Below are positions 1 through 39,338 of a DNA stretch of 64,000 bases, one piece after another. The notes below the pieces were generated by a model that was not told the origin of the DNA, ran no database searches, and worked only from the letters and a program-made list of their open reading frames with translations. The DNA comes from an uncultured Planctomycetales bacterium (GTDB lineage Bacteria; Omnitrophota; Gorgyraeia; Gygaellales; Profunditerraquicolaceae): positions 12,946 through 76,945 of the forward strand of contig CAZIUK010000003.1 in NCBI GenBank assembly GCA_964542785.1. Reading direction: 5' to 3'. Each line of letters opens with the position of its first letter. Position 1 is the first letter of the stretch. A program made the position numbers and the translations under genes.

Positions 1-3000
1 ATTAGTATGCGTTCTTTAGAAGATTTTAAGCTTAAAAAGAACCCACACGGGCAATACCGAGTAGATGATTTTTATTCTGTTTTAAAATATCTTAAATCTG
101 AATATCCCGAAGATATTTTATTTCTCTTTACCTCAACCGATTTAACTTCAAAATTTTATAGCCTAGTCCCTTATTACATCTTTGGCCGGGCGTGGATAGA
201 AGATAAAGTAATAGTTACCTCTATTTATCAATTCCATTCTTTTTCTGCTGAATTATTCAAAGAGCGTATTTATAAGCAGATTCTTCATGAATTAGGTCAT
301 ATATTAGGGCTTGATGATTGTCTTGATTCTAATTGTGCTATGCGTTTTTCTAGAAATATTATGGAATTGGATGAGAGAAAAAAAGAGTTTTGTAGCGGAT
401 GCAGGGGTTTTCTTAAGGTAGAATTAAGCAATTTCCGTGAGAATGACGGCGCTTATACCGCTAATAGTATTTATCTAATAGGGTCAGAAAAAGGCTTACA
501 GGGTGTTAGTTATTTTAGCCTTTATCTTTCGGGATCTGAGGATAAAGAAGGGTTTTTTGGCAATCTTACTAAGCAAGTGGTAGCTTACCATGGGTATAAA
601 GAGGTTGTAGAGTATGAATGTAGCCTGCAAGTTCATCAAAAAGCATTGCACGATATTTATGCAAAAGAGGTTAATTTTAAGACAGGATTAAGAAGGGATT
701 TAGAAACTTTAAAGAGACCTAGATTACCTAAAGAAACTAAAATAGAAAATGTATATCCTTTTAGGCTTTACAGCAAAGAGAGGATTGTAAGTAAGGCAGA
801 TATAGAAAACATAGAGTATTTAAAAGAAAGTCTAAAACGAAATATATACTACGTTAATGCTCCGTCGTTAAGAAAAGATCAGATTATTTTTAGGGTTAAG
901 GACCTTGTTAAAATAGTTTCGTTTATTAAAGCAGAAATAAACAAGCGTCTTCCCAAATTACAGATAATAAATATTTCTGTTTATGGGTCATATCTTTTTA
1001 GCGATGAGGAAGTTGTCCCAAGCGATATAGATATAATTGTTATTGTTGGCGGGAATTACTTTAGTACCGGCATTGAGATCCCGATTAGCCGTTTATGGAT
1101 ACCTTCTTTTGGCAATCTACGTTTGGCTAAGCAGTTTTCTATTTATGTTATGGGCGACGAAAATCTTAAGGACGGCATTTTGGATGAGACTGCAATTTTT
1201 AGCCCGCAGGAAAAAGTTAGATGGCTTGCAACGCAGAAGAGAGTTGTTGAGAATACCTCTTTTGTTTTATACAGAAGGAATGTTGTTTTAGACGGTTGTG
1301 ATTTTATAGCAAACGAAGAGATTTACCGCAGAAATATCTTAGCGCGTGTTTACGACCTTCTTTATAATGCCTACCGTAGGATGTATCTTCATCAACTTAA
1401 GACTAATGAAAAAGAGTTTGAAAGGTTTAAAATTGCTACTACTCGCTTATTAGACGCAGCATTATTTTTAAAAGACCATAAGCCTGTTAGTTTTGATTGC
1501 GAGGAGATATTTAACTTAAGAAAGAGGTTTGAAGAGACCTACGTGATAGACCGTAAGATGGCAAAGTTGGAAGTTCAAAGGGCATGGGTTCAATTATCAG
1601 AGGAATACTCTAGATTTTTAGGAGTTTCTAATTACCGCGATAATGGAGGCAGTTATAAAAATACAAAGCAGGGGTATAGTTGCCCTTTTTTTACAGTAGA
1701 TAGACATCAGGAGGCGTATACCCTAATTCAAGAGTATGTAAAGATAATTGATAAGCTACCTGTACTTATTAACTTTGATGCTCGTTTTGATATAGGGCAA
1801 ACAATTCCGCTTTTAATTGCAGGCCGTAATTGGATATCTTTCCTATTGGATAGTAAGCTAATCCGGAGTTGTTATTTTATTTCAAACAGGCCTAAGTATA
1901 GTAGCTTTATTTTGCATTATGACAATAAAGGAATGATTTTAAAGAGCAATAGTCTAAATTCTTTAGATTGCGCTGAAGAGAATGCTATTGTCAGCATTGA
2001 CTTAGACTATATTATTTCGAAAGATATTCCGGAAGAGATAGACGAAAGTAGGATAGCTTTAGTGGTTAATAGTATATTTAGAATTTTGCGGGAGAATAAT
2101 ATAAAGCCTTCTATGGTTATTGTATTGCGTTCTTCGGACTCCATTCTATCCGCTTTAGAGTGGAGAGCAAGGGCGAGGATTGAATCTTGTTTTCTAGAAT
2201 TTTTTGTGGAGATTAGAAGGAATACCGAATTAGAAAACGAGGCACAAGCTAGGCAGAAGGTTTTAAATAAGGCTACCCTTAAGAAGATAAAAGAGGAGGA
2301 TAATGCTAAGATAAGTATAGTCCTTGGTAATAAGTTAAGGACTTTTACTCTTTATAGATGGGTTAGGATATTTGATAGCATCCTTTTTTCTCTTGATAAA
2401 GAGAGTTCTTCCTTAAAGGGAATGGTTAAAGATATAGAAAGTTTCCGGTTTAGCAATAATTGCTTATCTAAAATACAGGGTTTTATGAATTTGGTAAAAG
2501 ACTCAAGGTTAGAGGAGAAAAAAGAGTCTTTCAGGAGGCTCCTTGTTGCTAAAGAGTTTATAGGGTTAGGAAGGGTTAATTTGGCGGTAGAATCAATGCA
2601 GGCGGTAGCTTTGTTAATAAGGTCGCGTATTGCTGATATTGAGTCTATGAGAGAGAGATTGTTTAAAGTTAGAAAAGAGCTTTTAACATTATCTAAAAAT
2701 AGATTGGAGAGGGTTCAAGGAGCTATTAGAGAAGTAACGGCAGGTTATTGCTATTCTAAAGATAGTAGTTATCTTAAGCAGTCTTTATTTCGGCTATTTA
2801 GATGGCCTTTTTTAGGGGAGCCGGATTTTATAGGGGTACGTAATCAGATTAAGCGCTTAGGAATAATCGTAAATAATCTGCAAAAGAATAAAGCTAGAGG
2901 GCTTCTTTTTGAAAGATTAAAGTTGATAGAGTCTATTTTATCTGAGGCGTTATTAGAGAATGAGTTTACAACAGATTATAGAAATAAGGTTAAATCTTTT

Positions 3001-3423
3001 AGCGGGAGGTTAGAAGAGTTTGATGTTTTATTTAAGGAGTGGGCCGTAAAAAATAGCCTTATTCGAGGCTCTCCGAGGTATTGGAGGGCGCGCCTCTTTA
3101 AGGCTCTCTTTATCTCGGAGAAATCCCCTTGTTTTGCTGCCTGCGATACTATGCTCTTAGTCATCAAGGTTACGAATTTTAGGTTGATTATTCATAGTTT
3201 AATTAAAAATAACCGCTCTAATCTTTTAGGGTTTATTCTTGGTTTTTTAAAATCAAACCCAGATATGCATTGCGCAAAAGATATTACCGGTAAAAATAGG
3301 AATCAATTCCTTATGGAGCTTATAGCAAATGCCTCTTCTGATTTTAATTTATTAGAAAAAGCCAAGGCAGAAGATATAGTAAACCTTTATAAGGCGTTTT
3401 TAATCAAGTTTCCTGGAAAATAG
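1..3423 (+). CDS. Multidomain protein (possibly 5'-partial): N-terminal archaemetzincin-like zinc metallopeptidase, central Pol-beta-type nucleotidyltransferase, long C-terminal helical region
   Basis: HELGHILGLDDCLDSNCAMRF...CSGC fits the archaemetzincin HEXXHXXGX3CX4C...CXXC signature. GSYLFSDEEVVPSDIDIIVIV fits the minimal NTase G[SG]..D.D motif. RRMYLH (Rx4H) follows the NTase. The frame stays open to nt 1, so the start may lie upstream of the window. Confidence 0.6.
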   Translation: MSMRSLEDFKLKKNPHGQYRVDDFYSVLKYLKSEYPEDILFLFTSTDLTSKFYSLVPYYIFGRAWIEDKVIVTSIYQFHSFSAELFKERIYKQILHELGHILGLDDCLDSNCAMRFSRNIMELDERKKEFCSGCRGFLKVELSNFRENDGAYTANSIYLIGSEKGLQGVSYFSLYLSGSEDKEGFFGNLTKQVVAYHGYKEVVEYECSLQVHQKALHDIYAKEVNFKTGLRRDLETLKRPRLPKETKIENVYPFRLYSKERIVSKADIENIEYLKESLKRNIYYVNAPSLRKDQIIFRVKDLVKIVSFIKAEINKRLPKLQIINISVYGSYLFSDEEVVPSDIDIIVIVGGNYFSTGIEIPISRLWIPSFGNLRLAKQFSIYVMGDENLKDGILDETAIFSPQEKVRWLATQKRVVENTSFVLYRRNVVLDGCDFIANEEIYRRNILARVYDLLYNAYRRMYLHQLKTNEKEFERFKIATTRLLDAALFLKDHKPVSFDCEEIFNLRKRFEETYVIDRKMAKLEVQRAWVQLSEEYSRFLGVSNYRDNGGSYKNTKQGYSCPFFTVDRHQEAYTLIQEYVKIIDKLPVLINFDARFDIGQTIPLLIAGRNWISFLLDSKLIRSCYFISNRPKYSSFILHYDNKGMILKSNSLNSLDCAEENAIVSIDLDYIISKDIPEEIDESRIALVVNSIFRILRENNIKPSMVIVLRSSDSILSALEWRARARIESCFLEFFVEIRRNTELENEAQARQKVLNKATLKKIKEEDNAKISIVLGNKLRTFTLYRWVRIFDSILFSLDKESSSLKGMVKDIESFRFSNNCLSKIQGFMNLVKDSRLEEKKESFRRLLVAKEFIGLGRVNLAVESMQAVALLIRSRIADIESMRERLFKVRKELLTLSKNRLERVQGAIREVTAGYCYSKDSSYLKQSLFRLFRWPFLGEPDFIGVRNQIKRLGIIVNNLQKNKARGLLFERLKLIESILSEALLENEFTTDYRNKVKSFSGRLEEFDVLFKEWAVKNSLIRGSPRYWRARLFKALFISEKSPCFAACDTMLLVIKVTNFRLIIHSLIKNNRSNLLGFILGFLKSNPDMHCAKDITGKNRNQFLMELIANASSDFNLLEKAKAEDIVNLYKAFLIKFPGK

Positions 3424-3588
3424 GGGGGTCTTTTTTGTAAGGGGGAAGGATTTGCAAGAAATTAAGAAGGGTTTTGTTTTTTATTTTAGAAGAGTAGTTG
3501 TTTGTTTCTGTTATATTGTATCGGAGTTTATGATATAATAATTTAGAGTTTAAGCAGGAAAAGCTACAGAGAGAAAGGATGTTAGAGT

Positions 3589-3945
3589 ATGGATGAGCGT
3601 AGAGCTTACCCTAGGATGAGAGTGGATAAAAATGCGGCTTGTACGATTGAAAACCGCTTTACTCCGCTTGCCTGTAATGTTGATGATATAAGTTTAAGTG
3701 GAGTAAGGATTACGATGTCAAAGAATCTTTTCCCGGAGGCTTTTTCTAATATAACCCTGGATATTCCGGAAACTTTATCTTTTAATGTCGGAACGCATGT
3801 CGCCTGGCATGATGAATACGAAGGAAAAAACACATATGGCCTTGCCTTCAATAGGTTAGATGATGGGGATAGAGATAAAATAGCCATTTTTATAAAAGAT
3901 AATTTGTTTAAGACTTTAAGTAAAGAATGGTGGAGGGGCTTATAA
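3589..3945 (+). CDS. PilZ-domain protein (predicted c-di-GMP receptor)
   Basis: RRAYPR (RxxxR) and DISLSGVRI (DxSxxG) motifs at PilZ spacing; 118 aa. Confidence 0.55.
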   Translation: MDERRAYPRMRVDKNAACTIENRFTPLACNVDDISLSGVRITMSKNLFPEAFSNITLDIPETLSFNVGTHVAWHDEYEGKNTYGLAFNRLDDGDRDKIAIFIKDNLFKTLSKEWWRGL

Positions 3946-3946
3946 T

Positions 3947-4633
3947 ATGTATGAACGCAGGAAGATATCCAGATGGCGCATTGATAAGCCGGCGAGGATT
4001 AAGTTTGAAGGATCCGTTTCTTTTATTGATTGCTTGGTCAAAGATATTAATTTTAAAGGCATGCAGATTGTAATGCCTTTAAGATTTAAGGCAGATACTT
4101 ATATAAAATTTAAGTTAAAATTGTCAGATCTTTTTTCTATAGAGAGTGAGGCATGGATAGCTTGGCATAAAAATAGCGATAGGCATAACATTTACGGCTT
4201 TTTATTTACAAGACTTACTGATGCAGATAAAGAAGTTATTTATAAATTTGTTTATCAGAGTGTCCCTGAAGCAATTTCGCATAATTTGTGGAAGGATGCT
4301 TTAAGGGAAGGAGGTGAAGATATGAATGACCGTAGGGTTTTCCAGAGGTTTAATATTCGTTTTTCTGTTAGGTTGTTTGATTTAAATAGCGGATATGAGT
4401 TTACCGGAGAGACAAGCGATATAAGCGCTAAAGGTCTAGGGGTATGGTTAAAAGACGATATACCTCCTAATACTCCTTTGGAGGCTTGGCTGAAGATCCC
4501 CGATAAAGGTGAACCTTTATACACAAGGGGGAGCGTGGCCTGGTCAAAGCCTGACCTTCAGGGTGAACACCGTTTAGGCATAAGCCTTGAACGGGCTGAC
4601 CTTATGGGTTTATCTAGGATATTGAGGATTTAG
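3947..4633 (+). CDS. Tandem PilZ-domain protein
   Basis: Two RxxxR...DxS/NxxG units (RRKISR/DINFKG and RRVFQR/DISAKG); starts 2 nt after the preceding PilZ gene. Confidence 0.55.
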   Translation: MYERRKISRWRIDKPARIKFEGSVSFIDCLVKDINFKGMQIVMPLRFKADTYIKFKLKLSDLFSIESEAWIAWHKNSDRHNIYGFLFTRLTDADKEVIYKFVYQSVPEAISHNLWKDALREGGEDMNDRRVFQRFNIRFSVRLFDLNSGYEFTGETSDISAKGLGVWLKDDIPPNTPLEAWLKIPDKGEPLYTRGSVAWSKPDLQGEHRLGISLERADLMGLSRILRI

Positions 4634-19403: not shown

Positions 19404-22400
19404 ATGAAGCCAAAATTATCCGAAAATGCATTGAAAGTTTTAGAAAGAAGGTATTTGAAAAAAGATGAAGAGGGGAAAGTTGTAGAAACCCCGCAAGAGC
19501 TTTTTAGAAGAGTGGCCTCTGCAATTGCTTCGGCAGATAGGTTATACGGAAAAACAGAAAAAGAGATTAAGGTGTTAGAGGAAGAGTTTTACAATATGAT
19601 GGCTTCTTTGGAGTTTCTCCCTAATTCCCCTTGCCTTATGAACGCCGGTAAGGATTTAGGGCAACTATCTGCTTGTTTTGTCCTTCCGATAGAAGATTCC
19701 ATGGACTCTATATTTGAGAGTCTTAAAGCAACTGCTATGATCCATAAGTGCCTTGTCCCAGAAACTATTGTTATGGTTGATAGCGGTTTAAAGGAATTAA
19801 AAGATGTTTCTCCCGGAGAGAGGATACTTACCGAAGAGGGGTATTATAAGGTAAGCGAAATACATAAAAATGGAACCAAAGATATTTTTGAAGTAGTTAC
19901 TGAAAAAGGATATGCAATTAGAGGCACTGCTAAGCACCGCCTATTTATTATTGATGAAAATGGCAATTATGCATGGAAAAAGATAAAAGATTTAAGCCCG
20001 GATGATTGGGTGGTTTTAAAGCCCGCTAAGTGGCATGGTAGAGAAGTAGTAAAGCTTTCTAATTTTAAGTATGATTATCATCCGGTTAATAACGGGTCTT
20101 TTAACTTAAAGAGGGTAAAGATTCCAAGCTTCCTCTCTGTGCAATTGGCAGAATTATGGGGGATGTATATAGGCGATGGCTCTAACCATCGCGACGGAAT
20201 CAGGTTTAGCGTTGGAGAAGAGAGCCGGGAGCTTGTTGATTACATCTCTAAAATCTCCTTAGAACTATTTAACAAAAAACCAAGTGTGAGTAGATATGAA
20301 AAGAAGAGTTGTTATGAGGTAGCTCTTCTTAGCGTTGAACTTAAAGAATGGTTTGCGTCTTTAGGCATAACCAAAGCCTCAGCGCGTAGCGCAAGGATCC
20401 CTAAGATTCTTAAAAACGCGGGAGAAGATTATATATGTGGTTTTTTAAGAGGGCTTTTTTCTACGGATGGCTGTATAAGGAAGAGCGGGCATATTGCTTT
20501 AAGTACTACATCAAGCGCTTTGGCAGAAGAATTACAGGTCATTATGCTTTATTTAGGGATACCTACGCAAAAAACATACCGTCCGGATACAGATAGTTAT
20601 CAAGTCTCAGTTTGTAATAAGTCAGGATTTGCTATTTTTAGGGATAAGATAGGATTTTTAATCCGCGCTAAGCAAGAAAGGTTAAGTTCCGTTAATATTG
20701 AGGAGATTTTTACTAAAGGGCAGATAATCCCGAACCAGAAGAATCGTTTAAGTTCTTGGTATAATAGCTTGGAAGATATCTTAGAAAGAAGAAGGGCGGC
20801 AGATTTTATAGAAGGAATAATCCATAGGCCATCCGGCTTTCGCCAGTTAACCCGGCAGAAGGCATTGCTTATGCAAGAAGATGGCTTAGGCCCCGAATTC
20901 CTTAAGCAGTTTTTACAGGATAACTTATTCTATACGAAAATAAGCAGTATAAAACATTGCGGCAAGAGCGTAGTGTATGACTTAACTGTTCCTTATAAAC
21001 ATTCTTATGTGGCGAATGGTTTTGTTAGCCATAATTCTGGTGGAGGGACGGGTTTTTCCTTTTCGCGCCTTCGGTCGAAAAATGCGGTAGTTAAGACTAC
21101 TGGGGGTGTTGCCTCGGGGCCTATATCTTTTATGCGCGTTTATGATGCGGCGACCGAAGCGGTAAAACAAGGCGGGACAAGGCGTGGCGCTAACATGGGC
21201 ATATTAAGGGTAGACCACCCGGATGTCTTAGAGTTTATTACCTGTAAAGATAATAATAAGCAGATTAATAATTTCAATATCTCTATCGCCTTAACCGATG
21301 AATTTATGCGCAAGTTAGAAAAGAATGAGGATTATGATTTGATAGATCCCCATACTCAAAAGGTAGTAGAGAAGGTTAACTCTAAGGAGGTATTTGACTT
21401 AATAGTAAAGCAGGCGCATAAGAACGGAGAGCCTGGGGTGATCTTTATTGACAGGATGAATGAATTTAATCCTACCCCTAAATTAGGCAAGTATGAGTCT
21501 ACTAATCCTTGCGGGGAGCAGGTCTTACTTCCTTATGAGAGTTGTGATTTAGGTTCAATAAACCTTTCTTTGATTTGCAAGCAAAGAGACGGGCTTTATG
21601 AGATTGATTGGAATAGGTTAAAAGAGGTGACGCATTTAGCTGTGTATTTTTTAGATAATCTAATTGACGAGAATAAGTTTCCTCTTTTGCAAATTGAAAA
21701 GGCGACAAAAGCGACCCGCAAGGTTGGGTTAGGGGTTATGGGTTGGGCTTCTCTGCTTATACGTTTGAATATACCTTATAATAGCGACGAGGCGGTTGCC
21801 TTGGCTGAGAAGGTTATGTCTTTTATTTTAGATGAAGCGGTTAAAAAATCTTTAGAGTTAGGCAAGGCAAAGGGTGCCTTTCCTGCATTTAAAGGAAGTA
21901 TCTATGATAAGAAGAACGCAACGGCTAAGATGCGCAATGCCACTCTTACTACGATAGCTCCGACAGGGACAATTAGTATTATTGCCGGTCCGTGCTCTTC
22001 TGGGATTGAGCCGTTGTTTGCGATATCTTATTACCGTAATGTAATGGACAATGATAAGTTAGTAGAGGTTGATCCTTTATTTGAAGAGGTGGCGCGTTTG
22101 CGCGGTTTTTATAGCCGTGAATTGATGGAGAAGATTGCTAAGAGCGGTTCCCTTGCGCATATTGAAGAGGTGCCTGAGGATGTAAAAAAGATTTTTGTTA
22201 CTGCCCACGATATATCTCCTGAATGGCATGTGCGTATGCAGGCGGCATTTCAGAGGTTTGTACATAATGCTACTTCAAAGACAATAAACTTTCCAGAGGA
22301 GGCTTCTATCGAAGATGTCCGTGAGGCCTATCTTTTAGCTTATGATTTAGGGTGTAAGGGGATAACTGTTTATCGCGATAAGAGCCGAGAGGAACAGGTC

Positions 22401-23003
22401 TTAAATATTGGTAGCTCTAAAGAAGACAAGAGCATAAAGACAGATACCTTTAAGCAGGATTTTAAGAAAGAGATTGCGCCTAGGCCTCGACCGGAGGTAA
22501 TTTTTGGCACAACGACAAAGGTCCCAACCGGCTGCGGGAATCTTTACGTTACTATAAATGTTGACGAAAAAGGAGAGCCATTTGAATTGTTTACTCAAAT
22601 GGGTAAAGCCGGGGGGTGCGCTGCTTCCCAACTTGAAGCCATAGGCAGATTAGTCTCTTTAGGTTTTCGTACAGGAGTAGAGGTCAAATCTATTATTGAA
22701 CAGCTTAGGAATATCCGCTGTCCGTCTCCTTCTTGGGAGAAAGGGCAACGTATATTTTCTTGTGCTGATGCTATTGCCAGAGTAATAGAGAGAAGGTTGG
22801 TAAATACGCAAACCTCAAAAGAAGGGCTTGAAGTAGCTCCAATAGCGATGAAGCACTCTTCTGATGATGAGCAAGTAGTAACTGAGATTAATAATAGCAC
22901 TAGCCGCGGGGATATTGTTGGAGTATGCCCTGATTGCGGGGGAGCTCTTCGCCATGAAGAAGGGTGTATGAAGTGTTATGCCTGCGGGTTTTCTAAGTGT
23001 TGA
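19404..23003 (+). CDS. nrdJ: Class II (adenosylcobalamin-dependent) ribonucleotide reductase, intein-containing
   Basis: Motifs LPNSPCLMNAG and (after intein removal) IHK-SGGGTGFSFSRLR; C-terminal zinc ribbon CPDCGG...CMKCYACG. The extein is ~770 aa. Confidence 0.85.
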   Translation: MKPKLSENALKVLERRYLKKDEEGKVVETPQELFRRVASAIASADRLYGKTEKEIKVLEEEFYNMMASLEFLPNSPCLMNAGKDLGQLSACFVLPIEDSMDSIFESLKATAMIHKCLVPETIVMVDSGLKELKDVSPGERILTEEGYYKVSEIHKNGTKDIFEVVTEKGYAIRGTAKHRLFIIDENGNYAWKKIKDLSPDDWVVLKPAKWHGREVVKLSNFKYDYHPVNNGSFNLKRVKIPSFLSVQLAELWGMYIGDGSNHRDGIRFSVGEESRELVDYISKISLELFNKKPSVSRYEKKSCYEVALLSVELKEWFASLGITKASARSARIPKILKNAGEDYICGFLRGLFSTDGCIRKSGHIALSTTSSALAEELQVIMLYLGIPTQKTYRPDTDSYQVSVCNKSGFAIFRDKIGFLIRAKQERLSSVNIEEIFTKGQIIPNQKNRLSSWYNSLEDILERRRAADFIEGIIHRPSGFRQLTRQKALLMQEDGLGPEFLKQFLQDNLFYTKISSIKHCGKSVVYDLTVPYKHSYVANGFVSHNSGGGTGFSFSRLRSKNAVVKTTGGVASGPISFMRVYDAATEAVKQGGTRRGANMGILRVDHPDVLEFITCKDNNKQINNFNISIALTDEFMRKLEKNEDYDLIDPHTQKVVEKVNSKEVFDLIVKQAHKNGEPGVIFIDRMNEFNPTPKLGKYESTNPCGEQVLLPYESCDLGSINLSLICKQRDGLYEIDWNRLKEVTHLAVYFLDNLIDENKFPLLQIEKATKATRKVGLGVMGWASLLIRLNIPYNSDEAVALAEKVMSFILDEAVKKSLELGKAKGAFPAFKGSIYDKKNATAKMRNATLTTIAPTGTISIIAGPCSSGIEPLFAISYYRNVMDNDKLVEVDPLFEEVARLRGFYSRELMEKIAKSGSLAHIEEVPEDVKKIFVTAHDISPEWHVRMQAAFQRFVHNATSKTINFPEEASIEDVREAYLLAYDLGCKGITVYRDKSREEQVLNIGSSKEDKSIKTDTFKQDFKKEIAPRPRPEVIFGTTTKVPTGCGNLYVTINVDEKGEPFELFTQMGKAGGCAASQLEAIGRLVSLGFRTGVEVKSIIEQLRNIRCPSPSWEKGQRIFSCADAIARVIERRLVNTQTSKEGLEVAPIAMKHSSDDEQVVTEINNSTSRGDIVGVCPDCGGALRHEEGCMKCYACGFSKC
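19749..21035 (+). mobile_element. Intein (429 aa) with a LAGLIDADG homing-endonuclease domain inside the RNR gene
   Basis: Begins with Cys (CLVPETIVMVDSG) and ends with HN followed by Ser (VSHN|SGGG). Two LAGLIDADG-like blocks (LWGMYIGDGS, FLRGLFSTDGC). Inserted in the conserved IHK/SGGG active-site loop. Confidence 0.8.
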
Positions 23004-30417: not shown

Positions 30418-31077
30418 ATGGATAAACAGAGCTCTGACGAAAGACTCCTTAAGCTTATAGAAGGTCAATATAATACCACTACCTTAAAAGGACAGCAAAT
30501 CCCATTTCCCAAAGGACAGAAGCCCGCTATAGAGAAAATAGAGAGAAAATTTAACCTCAATAAATTATTATCTCAAATTAAGGAGCTAAAAATTGATTTA
30601 GTTTATATTAACAAAGGATTAATTTTAGCAGCTGTTTTTTTAGTTTTAGTTTTTTTATTTACTATCTTTACTCCTCCTGGGACTTCTCTTTTAAGCCTTG
30701 AGACTTTTAATAACGCTAGCTCTCGGCAGATAGAGCAGCTAATTAATATGGGGCAAAAGCAGGCGAGTTTGCGTAAATCTGCCTCCTTTAAGGATATAAA
30801 AAGGAATATATTTCTTCCTTTTAGCGCTCCTCAGGGTTTATTAAACCTACAGCAAGCTACAGAATTATCGGAAGAGATAAAAGCGTTAAAATTGGTGGGT
30901 ATTATTTGGTCGGCTGATCCTGAGGTTATGATTGAGAATGCAAAAGACACAAGGACTTATATACTTAAAAAAGGAGATACTTTTAATGAATCTTATAAGG
31001 TAAAAAATATAACACGCAATTCAGTAACCTTGCAGGTATCTACCCAAGATGGCCTAAAGGATTATGAGCTAAGATGA
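30418..31077 (+). CDS. Bitopic membrane protein, possible GspB/GspC/PilP-like secretin partner
   Basis: Single TM helix; C-terminal beta-rich segment; sits between the ExeA-like and secretin genes. Confidence 0.35.
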   Translation: MDKQSSDERLLKLIEGQYNTTTLKGQQIPFPKGQKPAIEKIERKFNLNKLLSQIKELKIDLVYINKGLILAAVFLVLVFLFTIFTPPGTSLLSLETFNNASSRQIEQLINMGQKQASLRKSASFKDIKRNIFLPFSAPQGLLNLQQATELSEEIKALKLVGIIWSADPEVMIENAKDTRTYILKKGDTFNESYKVKNITRNSVTLQVSTQDGLKDYELR

Positions 31078-32609
31078 GGATTTTATTTTATTTTTTCTTA
31101 TATTTATCTTTATTTTTATTTTATCCCGGGTTAATTTTATCAGGAGAGGAAGGTACGCAGGTAAGCGCAGTTAAGGAGGTTAAGTTAGACGGGGTAAATG
31201 ATGATAGTCAAGAGAGTATTGATAAGATTTCTTTGGATCTGAAAGGGGTTGATATCAATGAGCTTTTTAAGATAATTTCTGCAAAATCCGGAATCACCAT
31301 AGTTACCTCTCCTGAAGTAAGGGGCCGGGTTTCGGTTTTTATTGATAATTTAAGTTTTGATGATGCGTTAGACGTAATCGTGACCTTACAGGATCTTGCT
31401 TACGAGAAGAAGGGGAACGTAGTAAAGGTGATGACTATGGTAGAGTATGAGCGGGCCTATGGGAAAAAATTCGGGGAGAGGAAAGAGACCCGTACTATAC
31501 GGCTTACTTATGCTAAGCCTTCTAATGTCGTCAATGCAATTACCTCCTTAAAGTCTGACCTTGGCAAGATTATTGCCGATGAATCTACCGGGACTATTAT
31601 TATAACCGATACTCCGCAATCTTTAAGTGTCATTTTAGAAGCTATTAAAGAATTAGACCGTCCTTTAGAAACTTTAGTAATTGATATTAATTATGCGCGT
31701 TTTGGGGATATAAAAAATTACCTGAATGAATTAATTACCCCCGGGGTAGGGCAGATTATCTCTGATGATAGAAGCGGTAAAGTGGTGGTTTATGATTTTC
31801 CTCAAAGGTTGGCGCGCATTAAAAACCTTTTGCAGGAATTAGACGAACAGTCCCGTCAGGTGCTTATTACTGGAGAGATTATTGAAGTAGAGATAGGCGA
31901 TAAATTTCAAAGCGGTATTGAGTGGGAAAAAATATTTAAGTCTGTGCATATGGATAATTTGGATTTAGTAGCGAAATTTCCAGTTACCCCGGCTTTGGCT
32001 AATTACGGTAAAATTAGCATAGGAACCTTGACACAGGACCATTATAATATAATAATTAATATGATTAATGAATATGGAAAGACTAAGATACTTAACCGCC
32101 CTAGGATTGTGGCGGTTAATAAAGAAGAGGCTAGGATTCTTGTCGGGACTCGCGAGGCCTATGTTACCTCTAGCCAAAGCCAAAGCGAAACTTCTGTAGT
32201 TACCGCAGAGAACATCAACTTTGTAGATGTCGGGCTTAAGCTGGTGGTTATTCCTACTATTGGCTCTGACGGTTTTATTACTATGAAAATAAAGCCTGAA
32301 ATCAGCACAGTAAAGGAGTATTTAGATACTGAGGCAGGTGGCCGTGTGCCGATAGTTAAAACTGCTGAATCGGAGACTGTGGTTAAGGTAAAAGACGGAA
32401 ATATGTTAGTTATAGCAGGGTTGATGATAGATAGTGATTTAAAAGAGGCTAAGGGGCTGCCTGATTTGTCTAAGTTGCCTATTTTAGGCCATTTATTTTC
32501 TACGAAGACAAAGGAAAAGACAAAATCAGAAATAGTTATTTTTATAACGCCAACAATTATAAGCGGCACTAGTGATTTTGGGCGCGAGGAGAGAAATGCA
32601 ATCAGGTAA
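31074..32609 (+). CDS. Secretin (T2SS/T4P GspD/PilQ/MshL family)
   Basis: Signal peptide; N-terminal secretin-N domains; C-terminal secretin core ending LPILGHLFSTKTKEKTKSEIVIFITPTII. Confidence 0.85.
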   Translation: MRILFYFFLYLSLFLFYPGLILSGEEGTQVSAVKEVKLDGVNDDSQESIDKISLDLKGVDINELFKIISAKSGITIVTSPEVRGRVSVFIDNLSFDDALDVIVTLQDLAYEKKGNVVKVMTMVEYERAYGKKFGERKETRTIRLTYAKPSNVVNAITSLKSDLGKIIADESTGTIIITDTPQSLSVILEAIKELDRPLETLVIDINYARFGDIKNYLNELITPGVGQIISDDRSGKVVVYDFPQRLARIKNLLQELDEQSRQVLITGEIIEVEIGDKFQSGIEWEKIFKSVHMDNLDLVAKFPVTPALANYGKISIGTLTQDHYNIIINMINEYGKTKILNRPRIVAVNKEEARILVGTREAYVTSSQSQSETSVVTAENINFVDVGLKLVVIPTIGSDGFITMKIKPEISTVKEYLDTEAGGRVPIVKTAESETVVKVKDGNMLVIAGLMIDSDLKEAKGLPDLSKLPILGHLFSTKTKEKTKSEIVIFITPTIISGTSDFGREERNAIR

Positions 32610-32628
32610 TATTATAAATGGTATAAAA

Positions 32629-32666
32629 GGGGACAGCGACTTTTTTATCAAAAAGTCGCTGTCCCT
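32629..32666. repeat. REP-like palindromic element GGGGACAGCGAC-T6atcA5-GTCGCTGTCCCT
   Basis: Exact family members also at 36657, 36819-36872, 38526, 53391-53449, 55076, 55700 and 59281-59340. Confidence 0.85.
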
Positions 32667-32670
32667 ATTT

Positions 32671-34611
32671 ATGAAATGGGGTATCTGCCTATTTTTATTA
32701 TTTTTGCTGATAGCGCCTTTAGGGGCTTTTATTTTTGCGCAAGGCGATATTGATTATGATGAACAGATAGATAAGATTTCTTTAGATTTAAAGAATGTTG
32801 AAATTGTAGAGCTTCTGCGCATACTTTCTCTTAAGACAAAAAAGACAATTGTCCCCAGCAAAGATATCTCAGGGCGCGTTACTATTTACCTTAATAACGT
32901 CTCTTTTAATGACGTTTTAGATATAGTCCTTTTAACTCAAGGCCTGGCTTTAAACAAAAAAGATAATATTTATTATGTTATGAGCGAAGCTGAATTTAAA
33001 AAAATTTTCGGCCGGGATTACATTGACAATAGAAAGGTAGAGACGGTAAAGCTTGCTTATGCTAAGCCCTCGGTAGTTTTTAATGCCTTAGGCCAGTTAA
33101 AATCAGATCTGGGGAAATTAGTCGTAGATGAATCAAGCGGGACGGTTATTCTTATAGATATTCCCGAAAAACTTTCTCTGATGAAAAAGATGATAAATGA
33201 AATGGACCAGCCATTGACAACCAAGGTCTACAACCTTAACTACATTAAAGCTGCTGATGCTAAAACTCAAATAACTGCCGCTATTACGCAAGGCACAGGA
33301 GAGGTTATAGTAGATGAAAGAAGCAGTAAAGCTATTGTTTCAGATTTATCTAAGAAAATGGATAAGATAGGTATGCTTGTACGCGAGATAGACGAAGAAT
33401 CGCGCCAGGTTTATGTGGAGGCTGATATTGTAGAGCTTAGTTTAAGCGATAAGTTTGAGCGCGGCATAGATTGGGAGAAGGTTTATACCTCTGCGGCTAT
33501 GGATGGATTAACCTTTGCCGGTTATTTCCCTGCTACATTAGCGCAGTTTCAAAAAATATCCGTTGGCACTTTAGCCGTGGATCACTACAAGGCCATATTA
33601 AATTTTCTTAACACTTACGGCAAGACGAATATCATCTCTCAGCCTAGGATAGCAGTTGTTAATAATGAAGAGGCAAATATTATGATTGGCGTGCGTGAGG
33701 CTTATATAACACAGACGCAGAGTCAGGCTACTTCCACTACGGTTACTTCGGAAACGGTAGAGTTTATTGATGTTGGCGTTAAGCTTAAAATATCCCCAAG
33801 GATAGGCTCTGATGGTTTTATCACTATGAAACTTAAACCTGAGGTAAGCTCTGTAAAGGAGACAGTAGAGACTTCTTTAGGCAGCCGTATTCCGATAGTC
33901 CAGACTTCTGAGTCAGAGACGACGGTAAAGGTTAAGGATGGGACGATGATTATGATTGCCGGGATGACTAAGATTGAAAATGTAGATGCGATTAAGGGTT
34001 GGCCAGTGCTTTCTAAAATTCCCTTTCTTGATATATTCTTTGGCAATCGTACCAGCGAGAAAAAGAGAACAGAGGTTATAGTCTTTTTGACTCCGAGAAT
34101 AATGCGCAGTGATGAAGGCTTAAGAGGATTAGAGATTGCTAAGATTCTCCCTAAGGAATATCTGCCTGAGAAGCTGCAGGTTAAGATAGACAGGGACCAG
34201 AAGATAGATGACGCTTTGTTTGAGACTGAGGAGAATCCGCAGGAATTACTTACGGCGCGCGATTATTATTTTAAGGGGTTAGAGTCGCAGGCATCTTTGG
34301 ATAATAAAGAGGCCATACGTTATTTTAAGAAGGCTATAGAGTTAGATAGTAAATATGCCGCGGCTTATAACAATTTAGGAATTGCTTATGAGAAGGAGTT
34401 TATGCCGGAAAAAGCAGAAGAGGCGTATCTTCAGGTTATATCTATGGACCCTTCTTTTGTCTCTGCTTATTCTAATTTAGCCTTACTTAATGAAGACCGG
34501 CTTGATTATGCCCGGGCGCTTATTTATTGGAGAAAACGAGTCCTTTACGGAGACCCTAATGATGAGTGGACTAAACAGGCTGTTCAAAGGGTTAAGGAGC
34601 TTAGCCGTTAA
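32671..34611 (+). CDS. Second secretin paralog with a C-terminal TPR extension (secretin fused to a pilotin/MshN-like TPR domain)
   Basis: Likely start MKWGICLFLLF (signal peptide), just after the REP element. Secretin core IPFLDIFFGNRTSEKKRTEVIVFLTP. C-terminal TPR repeats (AIRYFKKAIELDSKYAAAYNNLGIAY...). Confidence 0.8.
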   Translation: MKWGICLFLLFLLIAPLGAFIFAQGDIDYDEQIDKISLDLKNVEIVELLRILSLKTKKTIVPSKDISGRVTIYLNNVSFNDVLDIVLLTQGLALNKKDNIYYVMSEAEFKKIFGRDYIDNRKVETVKLAYAKPSVVFNALGQLKSDLGKLVVDESSGTVILIDIPEKLSLMKKMINEMDQPLTTKVYNLNYIKAADAKTQITAAITQGTGEVIVDERSSKAIVSDLSKKMDKIGMLVREIDEESRQVYVEADIVELSLSDKFERGIDWEKVYTSAAMDGLTFAGYFPATLAQFQKISVGTLAVDHYKAILNFLNTYGKTNIISQPRIAVVNNEEANIMIGVREAYITQTQSQATSTTVTSETVEFIDVGVKLKISPRIGSDGFITMKLKPEVSSVKETVETSLGSRIPIVQTSESETTVKVKDGTMIMIAGMTKIENVDAIKGWPVLSKIPFLDIFFGNRTSEKKRTEVIVFLTPRIMRSDEGLRGLEIAKILPKEYLPEKLQVKIDRDQKIDDALFETEENPQELLTARDYYFKGLESQASLDNKEAIRYFKKAIELDSKYAAAYNNLGIAYEKEFMPEKAEEAYLQVISMDPSFVSAYSNLALLNEDRLDYARALIYWRKRVLYGDPNDEWTKQAVQRVKELSR

Positions 34612-36669: not shown

Positions 36670-36791
36670 TATTTATAAGAGTAATATTTATAATAAAATA
36701 GAGTAGTTTTACGATTGTTATTTTAGGATAAATATAATATACTTAAGGTACAGGTTAAAAATAAAAAATGGCAGGTATAATGAAAATAATA

Positions 36792-36815
36792 AACAATAAC
36801 AATAACAATAACAAC
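36792..36815. repeat. Hexanucleotide microsatellite (AACAAT)3 plus AACAAC
   Basis: Read directly; ~35 bp upstream of the probable start codon at 36849. Confidence 0.8.
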
Positions 36816-36818
36816 AAA

Positions 36819-36872
36819 GGGGACAGCGACTATTACTATTTTTGCGCTATGATAAAAAAAGTCGCTGTCCCC
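36819..36872. repeat. REP element GGGGACAGCGAC-30 nt-GTCGCTGTCCCC spanning the start codon of the downstream gene
   Basis: The right arm encodes residues 3-8 (KKVAVP) of the signal peptide. Confidence 0.85.
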
Positions 36873-39338
36873 ATTTTGGTTGCGTGTTTTTTTGTTGTCG
36901 CAGCGCAGGCAGAGGTCTTGGTAATTAAAGCTCCCTTAACTTGGGGGCTTGATAAATCCGCAGAATACCCTTTGCCAAAAGTATTAAACGGTATTTATAC
37001 AACTGACCAGTTTGTAGCTACTGAAGGACAAGTTAGCGCTATTACGATGAATTGGGAATCAAGGGGCGCTATATCAATGGAGGTAAGCGCTGATAATGGG
37101 CTGCATTATACTCCGGTAATAAATGGCGTTCCTTTAGAGAGCGGTTTTGTAAGTGGAGATAGGATTCGCTGGCGGGCACAAGCGCTAAATGAGGATGCGC
37201 AGTTAACAGCGGTGAATCTTTCTTATTCTGATACATCCGGAGTAATAGGGGATTTTGGCCAGCCACTTTTAAGCGGATTTATGTACCGTAAAGAATTTAT
37301 AGTGCGCAATGATTCTAGAGAAGATTTATACAATTATCAGATGAAGCTAAGAATAGGGGAAAGTGAATTAGCCAAGGATGCTGATATCTGCCTTTCTAAA
37401 AAAGCAAAAGAGGATTTTAGCGATATAAGAATTAGCGCATCTGATGGTAAGCGTATTTTATCCTATTATCTTGAAAGCATAGAAGGCGAGCTTCCAGGAA
37501 AGCGCAGTGCTGTAATTTGGGTTAATATTCCTCAACTGCCAAAAGAAAAAGATTTAAAGCTTTACCTATATTATGGGAATCCGCAGGCTTTAAGTTTATC
37601 AAGCGGCGAGCAGACGTTTGATTTTTTTGATGATTTTAAAGACCCTGCCAAGAGCAATGAGAAATGGATAACCTATACAGAAAAAAACGGTACCTTGCAA
37701 TTAAAAAATGGGGAAATTAAGCTTGATGCAGCCGAAGCCATTACAAAAGATTTTCTTTTTAAAGAAGGAATTGTTGAGTATCCCGTAGAGATTGAGAGCG
37801 GTTTTGAAAACAGTTTAAACTTGCGTGTCCAGAATGGTAACTCTTATGATATTCCGCTTTGGTCGGGTTATTCTTCTTTATACAAAGGTGCAGAGCATTG
37901 CATTGCTGTAGAGGGGACAGTAAGAAATAATGACACAACTGCTCTACCTTCTTTTGCCGGAAATAGGTATTACTACCGTTTTGAATATTTTAATGGTAAT
38001 ATAGTCTTTAGCCGTTTTGATGCTTTGACTAAAGAAAAGCAGGCAGAGGCAGTCTTTAAGTCTGATTCTTTGCAAAAAATAGGCTATCTGTCTTTGCGTT
38101 CCGGAGGTGACGGGAATGGCAAGAATGTTATTCGTTTTGGCGCTATACTTGTGCGTAAAGCTGCTTTAATCAAACCGTATTTTGTTTCAGCAGGAAAAGA
38201 AGAGCAACTCTCTTTGCCTATTTTTTCCGGTACAACTCTTTCTTCTTTTGGGAGCCTTACTTTGGCCAAAGGGGCAATGAGCGGGCATTATATTTCAAGT
38301 AATATCCGAAGCGAAGACCAGATAAGGATCATGATCCCTGACTGGGATATTGATTCTCTTGGAGGAGAGTTTATCTTACATCTTTCTGCTGATGCCGGCG
38401 GGTCATATAAGAAAGGCTGCGAAAAGGGGAAGTATTATTATGCTTCAAAAAAGGATTTTGTCCCCGGGAAAAACTTAAAGATACGCATTGACCTTTTAAA
38501 AGGGGCAGGCTCCGAAGTCGAAAAAGTCGCTGTCCCCTTTGTGAAGGTGGAGCATAGGGCAGGAAAGGTAAATATTATTTCACCTAATGGCAGAGAGGTC
38601 TGGGAGGTAGGAAGCAGTAAGAAGATTAGCTGGAGTGCCTTGGATTACGATGAAACTTATCTTTTTGATTTAGCTTACTCTGTCAATGGAGGAAAGGATT
38701 ATATTGAGATTATAGCCAATAAAGATAATGATGGAGTTTATACTTGGGTTGTCCCGGATAAAATTACTAAAATCGCAAAGATAAAGATATCTGATTCTTT
38801 GGATAAAGGTATTTATGATCTTTCCGATGCTTATTTTTCTATTGTAGCTAGAGAAGATTTAAGCATTCAGGAAGAGAAAAAAGAAGAAGCAGGGGTAGTA
38901 GTGCAGGCAGCGCTAAAAGATAAAGCCAGTAAAGAGAGCAAAGATAAGAAAGATAAAGTTACTAAAGAAAGCAAAAAGAAGAAAGATAAAGTTAGCAAAG
39001 AGAACAAAAAGTTGCCGGGGAAAAATCTTTATGATCTTTTAATTAAGATAGGCGATAGCAGGTCTTCCTACAGCGAGGGGGATATTGTTATCTTAAGGCC
39101 TTCAGGTTATATTTGGAGCGTTGAAGAGAGGGAGAAGTTTTTGATTGCGCAGGTATACCTAACTGAAAAGCAGGCTGAGGAATTAACCTCTCCTTTAAAA
39201 ACAAAGGATGGAGAGATATTAAGCCGCAGGAAATATAGGATTAACTTGCTTAAGCAGGGGCTTAAAGGTTTGACAGGGTCAATTAAAAGGCCAAAGGGCT
39301 CTTTTGAGGCAGGGGTTATTGAGGATAAGGCAAATTAG
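36849..39338 (+). CDS. Secreted DUF2341/LamG-like surface protein with a Lys-rich low-complexity tail
   Basis: Start MIKKVAVPILVACFFVVAAQA (signal peptide); the ORF-track start at 36768 adds an artefactual poly-Asn extension. IRISASDGKRILSYYLE...AVIWVNIPQL...LYLYYGNPQA resembles the DUF2341 signature. KDK/KESKKK repeats near the C-terminus. Confidence 0.55.
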   Translation: MIKKVAVPILVACFFVVAAQAEVLVIKAPLTWGLDKSAEYPLPKVLNGIYTTDQFVATEGQVSAITMNWESRGAISMEVSADNGLHYTPVINGVPLESGFVSGDRIRWRAQALNEDAQLTAVNLSYSDTSGVIGDFGQPLLSGFMYRKEFIVRNDSREDLYNYQMKLRIGESELAKDADICLSKKAKEDFSDIRISASDGKRILSYYLESIEGELPGKRSAVIWVNIPQLPKEKDLKLYLYYGNPQALSLSSGEQTFDFFDDFKDPAKSNEKWITYTEKNGTLQLKNGEIKLDAAEAITKDFLFKEGIVEYPVEIESGFENSLNLRVQNGNSYDIPLWSGYSSLYKGAEHCIAVEGTVRNNDTTALPSFAGNRYYYRFEYFNGNIVFSRFDALTKEKQAEAVFKSDSLQKIGYLSLRSGGDGNGKNVIRFGAILVRKAALIKPYFVSAGKEEQLSLPIFSGTTLSSFGSLTLAKGAMSGHYISSNIRSEDQIRIMIPDWDIDSLGGEFILHLSADAGGSYKKGCEKGKYYYASKKDFVPGKNLKIRIDLLKGAGSEVEKVAVPFVKVEHRAGKVNIISPNGREVWEVGSSKKISWSALDYDETYLFDLAYSVNGGKDYIEIIANKDNDGVYTWVVPDKITKIAKIKISDSLDKGIYDLSDAYFSIVAREDLSIQEEKKEEAGVVVQAALKDKASKESKDKKDKVTKESKKKKDKVSKENKKLPGKNLYDLLIKIGDSRSSYSEGDIVILRPSGYIWSVEEREKFLIAQVYLTEKQAEELTSPLKTKDGEILSRRKYRINLLKQGLKGLTGSIKRPKGSFEAGVIEDKAN
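38526..38537. repeat. Solo REP half-site GTCGCTGTCCCC inside the coding sequence
   Basis: Read in-frame as KVAVPF within the DUF2341-like protein. Confidence 0.7.

Follow-up and report, generated by a model that had tools for sequence, protein, structure and literature searches.

We analysed a window of 64,000 nucleotides (nt) from an uncultured bacterium of the Omnitrophota lineage (contig CAZIUK010000003.1 of assembly GCA_964542785.1, positions 12,946 to 76,945 of the forward strand). At its left edge lies a large open reading frame (ORF; nt 1..3423, + strand), open at its 5′ end, which probably encodes the C-terminal part, at least 1138 amino acids (aa), of a larger mosaic protein. The uninterrupted frame spans nt 7-3423 (1138 codons, with the stop codon at 3421-3423), and because 1138 codons stay open in DNA of ~35% G+C, the ORF is certainly coding. 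The first six nucleotides (ATT AGT, followed by ATG) hold no in-frame stop, so that the reading frame is already open at nt 1; the Pfam match to Peptidase_M54 begins at profile position 65 of 194; and, by alignment with complete archaemetzincins, ~47 N-terminal residues of the peptidase fold are absent. The gene therefore extends beyond the 5′ edge of the window, whose first residues still align with a homologue, P0002. A first reading of this DNA, made from the letters alone (the sequence-only reading), rightly suspected that the 5′ end falls outside the window; the protein size of 1138 aa that it gave is wrong, being a lower bound for a gene that runs off the window edge. Five segments, or tiles, follow one another on the one polypeptide: a peptidase of family M54, a spacer of ~80 aa, a nucleotidyltransferase (NTase) of the aminoglycoside nucleotidyltransferase (ANT)/KNTase-like kind with its helical bundle, a UPF0489/arginase-like tile that is probably degenerate, and an all-helical tile, here called B2.

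The N-terminal tile (nt 1..426, + strand) is an archaemetzincin, as had been proposed from its HELGH motif. Pfam PF07998 (Peptidase_M54) matches aa 14-135 with E=5e-21 and 76 bits, against a gathering score of 24.4, which also disposes of the concern that the HEXXH region might not be archaemetzincin-like. The solved archaemetzincins 2x7m (E=8e-16), 4axq and 3zvs match as well (range 1e-14 to 8e-16). The NCBIfam model archmetzin gave E=4e-22 and 79 bits, under its subfamily cutoff of 145 because of truncation and divergence. The zinc site HELGHILGLDDC lies at nt 286-321 and the Cys4 site with the Met-turn at nt 319-402; the whole stretch, HELGHILGLDDC-LDSN-C-A-M...C-SG-C (nt 286-402), retains the HExxH, the Gly, the Met-turn and all four Cys. 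Set against the family signature HExxHxxGxxH-C-x4-C-x-M-x17-CxxC, the sequence HELGHILGLDDCLDSNCAM...CSGC keeps every element but the third His. HExxHxxG, C-x4-C-x-M and CxxC are thus common to this tile and to archaemetzincins such as AmzA, AMZ-tk and human AMZ1/2. Unlike the tile described here, which sits in a long multi-tile protein and scores below the NCBIfam family cutoff, those are stand-alone proteins of 160-210 aa with His as the third ligand. At that position both the large ORF and P0002 have Asp (GLDDC) in place of the canonical His (GLxHC), and four stand-alone archaemetzincin relatives in our alignment read GLVHC. Snapalysin is an Asp-zincin, and the Asp-variant site is compatible with that type, yet it lies outside the canonical archaemetzincin signature.

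Close relatives of the peptidase tile amount to one, P0002, a partial 1320-aa protein from a metagenome-assembled genome (MAG) of Omnitrophota. A word-indexed homologue search with the full ORF returned just P0002 and P0001, a 100% identical fragment; a search with an alignment of the peptidase and the peptide that follows it returned the four stand-alone archaemetzincins and nothing else. Scanning with the peptidase alignment recovered P0002's own contig only among genome contigs and no match among metagenome contigs. In P0002 another segment, of which at least 125 aa are visible, lies ahead of the peptidase. This upstream stretch (aa 1-125; nt 1-375 of contig L007) is the end of that segment and carries a second HExxH (YHELVSH), with no Pfam match.

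The spacer (aa 151-231; nt 457..699, + strand) has no homologue in an exhaustive HMMER search with aa 151-1138; it was covered by no match, the earliest aligned query residue being 207. The same search returned 77 relatives, mostly matching aa ~232-540 and including many stand-alone proteins of 270-300 aa, and so delimits the NTase tile (aa 232-540; nt 700..1626, + strand), in which a Pol-beta NTase core precedes a C-terminal four-helix bundle. The tile begins with a conserved N-terminal extension ('YP..F / RNxYY'), followed by the G327-S core, D340-x-D342 and E385. G327, D340 and D342 are invariant in the 22 aligned homologues; Ser or Gly occupies position 328 in 22/22 and an acidic residue position 385 in 21/22, and R424 (20/22) and R480 (21/22) are nearly invariant. 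No Pfam model covers this family. Taken alone, the region scores below threshold against Polbeta and NTP_transf_2 (E=0.017-0.13; Polbeta 0.017-0.024), and confirmation as an NTase called for a family profile and a structure model. The profile matched 9xbd in the PDB at 3.4e-5, poly(A) polymerase at 0.006, ANT(3'') at 0.03 and MNT at 0.04; the AF2 model is confident (pLDDT 91.5, pTM 0.90) and shows an NTase fold followed by a four-helix up-down bundle. The tile is thus confirmed as a divergent Pol-beta nucleotidyltransferase with a four-helix bundle, the nearest solved relatives of which are aminoglycoside nucleotidyltransferases. The GS..D.D motif from which the sequence-only reading had recognised such an enzyme was sound, and neither the third carboxylate nor the fold turned out to be missing.

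In overall type the tile resembles ANT(4')/AadA enzymes, unlike CD-NTases: in a Foldseek search with the NTase model, CdnC appeared only at E=0.27-0.43 with a probability of 0.15-0.18, and the fold is not cGAS/DncV-like. Sequence identity to ANT(4')/KNTase, AadA/ANT(3'')(9), LinB and MNT-HEPN pairs is 10-14%. Compared with the two-domain aminoglycoside and lincosamide NTases and with the MNT-HEPN pairs, the tile adds its conserved N-terminal extension of ~75 aa, for which the N-terminus of eukaryotic poly(A) polymerase gives a weak alignment (E=0.006), and it has no conserved Rx4-6H. An Rx4H (R457...H462) does exist in the sequence and had been taken as a sign of a HEPN-like helical domain. 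At the level of fold this idea stands, as the bundle after the NTase superimposes on HEPN proteins; the motif is not a family feature, R457 occurring in 3/22 and H462 in 1/22 aligned homologues, that is, the His in this sequence alone. We also noted that the NTase tile recurs, in P0003, P0019, P0028, P0032, P0057 and P0074, beside tiles of class-I methyltransferase, cytidine/dCMP deaminase, APH and GNAT type. NTase, APH and GNAT are the three enzyme folds of aminoglycoside modification, and this company hints at a theme of small-molecule or nucleotide modification.

The third enzyme-like tile (aa 551-737; nt 1657..2217, + strand) has homologues within P0039 and P0070, in segments marked by FD[SA]HSDMG...VDLD[YF] (VDLDYLISN). 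These homologues match Pfam UPF0489 (0.014) and Arginase (0.066) weakly, and the family assignment follows from those matches. The tile itself reads FDARFDIG (nt 1768-1797, aa 588-597), with Arg in place of His at DxHxD, so that the metal motif is not preserved; because a putative metal-binding His has been lost, the tile is probably catalytically degenerate, perhaps a non-catalytic remnant. The last tile, B2 (aa 738-1138; nt 2218..3420, + strand), is all-helical and has conserved blocks (LYRWxRI, WPFLxEPDF and RGxPRYWRARLYKAxFISERSxCF). Its model has a pLDDT of 79.9, and a structure search with that model found no informative neighbour. An identity as Tox-HDC toxin was considered for aa 880-926 and set aside, the match (E=0.016-0.076) being sub-threshold and lying inside the conserved helical tile. 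The large ORF stops exactly at the C-terminal boundary that B2 usually has in other proteins.

Those other proteins place the large ORF among the mosaic multi-enzyme proteins of Candidatus Omnitrophota. B2 recurs in proteins of 2,448-7,778 aa; five of them, P0004, P0005, P0006, P0015 and P0020, match it with E=1e-29 to 1e-59 and are Candidatus Omnitrophota MAG proteins of 2859-7778 aa, 4/5 of them marked partial. With four distinct tiles in 1138 aa, one of them common to these five proteins, the large ORF is itself of the multi-enzyme kind. P0004 combines Metallophos, peptidase M50, PAS, the helical tile, URO-D, Fer2 and RACo; P0003 (2,204 aa, labelled Elusimicrobia) combines an SF1 helicase, the helical tile, NUDIX, GNAT, the NTase tile and a sugar transferase. 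Elsewhere the NTase tile adjoins cytidine deaminase, APH, HAD, PCMT, several methyltransferases, GNAT, helicase and sugar transferase. An archaemetzincin was found in none of the mosaic proteins that share the NTase or the helical tile, and the peptidase-NTase pairing in no other recovered homologue; in P0002 the archaemetzincin is followed by unrelated tiles, one of them ELFV-dehydrogenase-like. These data show that the tiles are independently mobile and that the adjacency of peptidase and NTase is a one-off combination rather than a conserved functional pair. The proposal of a dedicated peptidase-NTase architecture is accordingly not supported, since the pairing is not conserved and the same peptidase precedes other tiles in P0002.

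Giant proteins forming 'multi-enzyme metabolic clusters' have been described as one class in Omnitrophota (bioRxiv 10.64898/2026.06.07.730766). Like these class 1 giants, and like the Archaeovorins (bioRxiv 10.1101/2023.11.21.568195), the large ORF carries many unrelated enzyme tiles on one polypeptide, a peptidase tile among them; ORFs of the Omnitrophota giants are typically truncated at contig ends, as here, and B2 is common to Omnitrophota proteins of 2.4-7.8 kaa. There are also differences. The giants are, by the preprint's definition, of at least 10 kaa, whereas the large ORF is visible over 1138 aa only; the peptidases discussed in the preprints are C39 or S8, whereas the one found here is an archaemetzincin. 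Furthermore, a repeated peptide at the tile boundaries, to which we turn below, is mentioned in neither preprint, one of which has no text on cleavage, linkers or processing.

At two tile boundaries of the large ORF, and at boundaries in two relatives, we found a decapeptide, S-N-[FY]-R-[DE]-N-[GD]-G-x-Y, with two instances in the large ORF, three in P0002 and one in a further relative, P0009. The first, SNFRENDGAY (aa 141-150; nt 427..456, + strand), follows the peptidase fold, starting 8 aa past the CxxC that closes it, and is the point at which homology to P0002 ends: identity is 69% over the 146 aa up to the motif, and beyond it the two proteins are unrelated (BLASTP E=0.62). Similarly, the second, SNYRDNGGSY (aa 541-550; nt 1627..1656, + strand), follows the last helix of the NTase tile, falls in the low-pLDDT tail of the AF2 model and is where homology to P0009, at 57% identity up to the motif, ends; beyond the motif P0009 goes on into a stretch that, on inspection by eye, is hydrophobic and probably spans the membrane. 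P0002 has SNFRDNGGEY directly after its peptidase fold, and MVRDNGGDF and RRNNGGDY flank its ELFV-dehydrogenase-like region; the single site of P0009, HRDNGGSN, comes after its NTase tile. The full motif would be expected by chance ~5e-8 times per 1138 aa of the same composition. The codons differ between instances, and therefore it is the peptide that is conserved and not the DNA.

Three other accounts of the motif were considered and rejected: an internal start directed by a Shine-Dalgarno-like GGAGG in the motif DNA (present in only some instances, with no start codon after it), DNA repeats serving as recombination sites (the codons differ between instances) and spontaneous Asn-Gly cleavage (motif 1 has N-D-G, not N-G). 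A query with the junction-module-junction segment of P0002 gave no match, and a literature search for the motif string found nothing relevant. Since wider searches gave no further carriers of the motif, we regard the clade as very thinly sampled. A separate observation concerns the contig that encodes P0009 (L049; ENA ERZ27250192 k141_472316). Its NTase tile is intact except for one in-frame stop, at ~nt 484-531, which may reflect a sequencing error, decay to a pseudogene or recoding; after the tile come the junction motif and the C-terminal segment of ~135 aa that by eye looks hydrophobic and membrane-spanning.

As the best explanation of the whole, which we consider moderately likely, the large ORF encodes the C-terminal end of a longer, mosaic multi-enzyme protein of the Candidatus Omnitrophota type, in which the junction peptides may be processing sites. 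The polypeptide would then be a precursor, and cutting at the junctions would release an NTase-containing product of ~390 aa and a product of ~590 aa. The zinc-peptidase tile, with its intact HExxH, Met-turn and Cys4 site, would be the likeliest and most economical candidate for the protease. Among archaemetzincins, AMZ-tk degrades casein and undergoes Zn-dependent self-cleavage (PMC4681839). Whether giant Omnitrophota proteins are cleaved has been described as an open question, with no cleavage points known (West-Roberts et al.). The arrangement recalls viral polyproteins and the demarcation motifs of polymorphic toxins (VENN, DPxGL), which likewise have a short peptide at unit boundaries, divergence beyond it and a protease in the same chain. 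It differs from these in being a bacterial chromosomal gene amid housekeeping genes with ordinary enzyme tiles; the likeness is a functional analogy rather than homology, and cleavage is here a prediction. In the most specific form of the proposal, which we consider less likely than not, proteins would truly be matured at S-N-[FY]-R-[DE]-N-G-G-x-Y, and a subset of Omnitrophota mosaic proteins would be bacterial polyproteins with their own Asp-variant archaemetzincin-type maturation protease, which cuts at the junctions and sets separate enzymes free.

The sharp break of homology at the motif, both between the large ORF and P0002 and between the large ORF and P0009, would also be expected of a cassette resembling polymorphic effectors, in which peptidase and motif are constant, the motif marks a boundary (as VENN does in CdiA and DPxGL in Rhs) and the C-terminal cargo is swapped and released. 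The segment beyond the motif does vary, being the NTase, the GDH-like region or the hydrophobic, probably membrane-spanning segment, and the sub-threshold Tox-HDC match (E=0.016-0.076) points the same way. However, that match is below threshold and no recognised toxin is among the cargo, the tiles being of ordinary enzyme type (ELFV dehydrogenase-like, ANT-like NTase); the motif is found several times per protein, where a single copy ahead of a terminal toxin would be expected; the available part of the protein has no secretion or trafficking domain; and the genes that come next are PilZ and ABC transporter genes instead of a small immunity-like gene. We consider such a cassette quite unlikely. 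A different possibility is that the motif is cut by another protease, for example a C39 double-glycine peptidase, which cleaves after Gly-Gly, or that it is an uncleaved linker or docking peptide within one multi-domain chain. Gly-Gly is present in 5/6 motif instances, C39 tiles form a major architecture group among the long proteins of Omnitrophota, where a processing role has been proposed for them, and NTase tiles elsewhere stand 8-40 aa from their neighbouring tiles with the motif absent. Yet motif 1 lacks Gly-Gly (it reads N-D-G-A), the parts of the window that were scanned contain no C39 domain, and the motif co-occurs with an archaemetzincin tile in both proteins with a visible upstream region, the large ORF and P0002. 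This makes either variant unlikely in our judgement.

Several points weigh against processing at the junctions and against the size that we ascribe to the precursor. Just three proteins, with six instances, carry the motif; the larger mosaic proteins were recovered without it, save for two loose core matches (P0004, P0020) whose position relative to a boundary is unchecked; and a back-translated motif pattern run over metagenome contigs returned 40 loci, all of them single chance matches in unrelated or short ORFs. Within the large ORF, the boundaries between spacer and NTase and between the UPF0489-like tile and B2 have no motif, and motif 1 has N-D-G instead of N-G-G. Because the third zinc ligand is Asp, not His, the tile is presumed to be an active peptidase on the model of snapalysin and other Asp-zincins. 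The terms 'larger' and 'giant' are drawn only from the absent N-terminus of the peptidase and from P0002, and the stretch that links the peptidase with the front half of the NTase (nt 1-1117) is present in this assembly only. Cleavage itself we infer from sequence.

That restricted coverage raises the question of whether the ORF is an artefact, with fragments of unrelated genes joined by chimeric assembly or in a decaying pseudogene. The public assemblies compared (L001-L006, L050 and P0001) all break inside the ORF, at aa ~372, ~382, ~560 or later, and none of them reaches the peptidase tile; the catalytic His is lost in the UPF0489-like tile, and the related contig L049 has its in-frame stop inside the NTase tile. 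On the other hand, a frame of 1138 codons at 35% GC is not open by chance; aa 372-1138 are matched at 100% identity by the independent assemblies L001 and L003 and the protein P0001; the NTase tile runs intact across the breakpoint of L001 with all its invariant residues; and the arrangement of peptidase and motif recurs in P0002. We therefore give an artefact almost no credence. That every independent public assembly breaks inside the ORF suggests that repeats or strain variation make this gene, or the portion upstream, difficult to assemble.

The mosaic precursor with processing at its junction peptides would bear on more than this one gene. Mosaic multi-enzyme proteins of Omnitrophota are a recently described kind; the repeated junction peptide beside a protease tile is a new observation. 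It is explicitly an open question whether the very long multi-enzyme proteins of this phylum each function as one chain or are processed into smaller parts, and this locus makes it testable, having a repeated boundary peptide, homology breakpoints exactly there and a metallopeptidase tile just upstream of one copy. If the peptide is a maturation site, it would be the first defined cleavage motif for Omnitrophota giant proteins. We know of no established physiological substrate for archaemetzincins; if the peptidase tile does the cutting, this would supply the first physiological role and substrate for a member, and a cis-processing role would inform the family. Even without processing, the locus illustrates clearly why functional coupling should not be read from the adjacency of domains in these mosaic proteins, a risk that the sequence-only reading ran. 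That reading is largely right at the level of domains; its size for the protein is wrong, its HEPN motif fails and its view of a defence or signalling function is unsupported.

Downstream of the large ORF lie two PilZ genes, as had been noted. The first (nt 3589..3945, + strand; 118 aa) encodes a single PilZ domain (Pfam E=1.6e-14) with RRxxxR and DxSxxG motifs; the second (nt 3947..4633, + strand; 228 aa) encodes a double PilZ protein, matched in two stretches (Pfam E=1.2e-24), and ends 37 nt upstream of a sugar ABC transporter operon. Read from the translations, the RxxxR and DxSxxG motifs are RRAYPR...DISLSG, RRKISR...DINFKG (a variant with Asn for Ser) and RRVFQR...DISAKG. A gap of 165 nt separates the large ORF from the first of these genes and contains a perfect TATAAT at 3533-3538. 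The PilZ genes are thus separate neighbours, tied to the large ORF by adjacency alone.

This arrangement bears on the function that the sequence-only reading proposed: one enzyme devoted to nucleotide signalling or phage defence, whose NTase would sense or produce a signal and whose peptidase would act as effector, with the PilZ proteins as receptors. All three domain types are indeed present and adjacent, and a PADLOC search gave, as its best match, the NTase core (45 aa) against a model for the candidate system PDC-S09; at E=0.003 this was not significant, and PADLOC and NCBIfam together found nothing beyond the peptidase and PilZ. In contrast to what such an enzyme would call for, the NTase is ANT/KNTase-like and not cGAS/DncV-like, the HEPN Rx4H is not conserved, and the peptidase-NTase pairing is kept in no homologue, so that the homologous fusions looked for elsewhere were absent among those recovered. 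PilZ binds c-di-GMP, which is made by GGDEF cyclases and not by the NTase fold, and the two genes, set off by their gap and -10 box, abut the sugar ABC operon. The context, too, is not that of a defence island: the 64-kb neighbourhood is of a housekeeping kind, with the sugar ABC transporter, glycoside hydrolases, ROK, LacI, an intein-bearing ribonucleotide reductase (RNR), MnmG, secretins, ATP synthase and a type II secretion system (T2SS) ATPase. Coupled signalling or defence of this sort is very improbable.

Some features of the wider window are recorded here in their own right. All 37 of the 37 credible ORFs of at least 150 aa in window 1-64000 lie on the + strand, an unusually long unidirectional stretch, and GC skew is positive in every window across the first 12 kb profiled. 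The RNR large subunit (1199 aa; 19404-23003, + strand) contains an intein with a LAGLIDADG homing-endonuclease domain and ends in a C-terminal TSCPD domain. Tandem secretin genes (31074-34611, + strand) have ORFs that overlap by 38 nt, the second with a C-terminal TPR region. Further along, an 856-aa DUF2341 protein (36768-39338) and a 961-aa protein with Ig-like domains (41037-43922) are encoded upstream of an ORF of 3115 aa (44023-53370, + strand), which matches no Pfam family at E<=0.001 and could be another long surface or uncharacterised protein of the Omnitrophota type.

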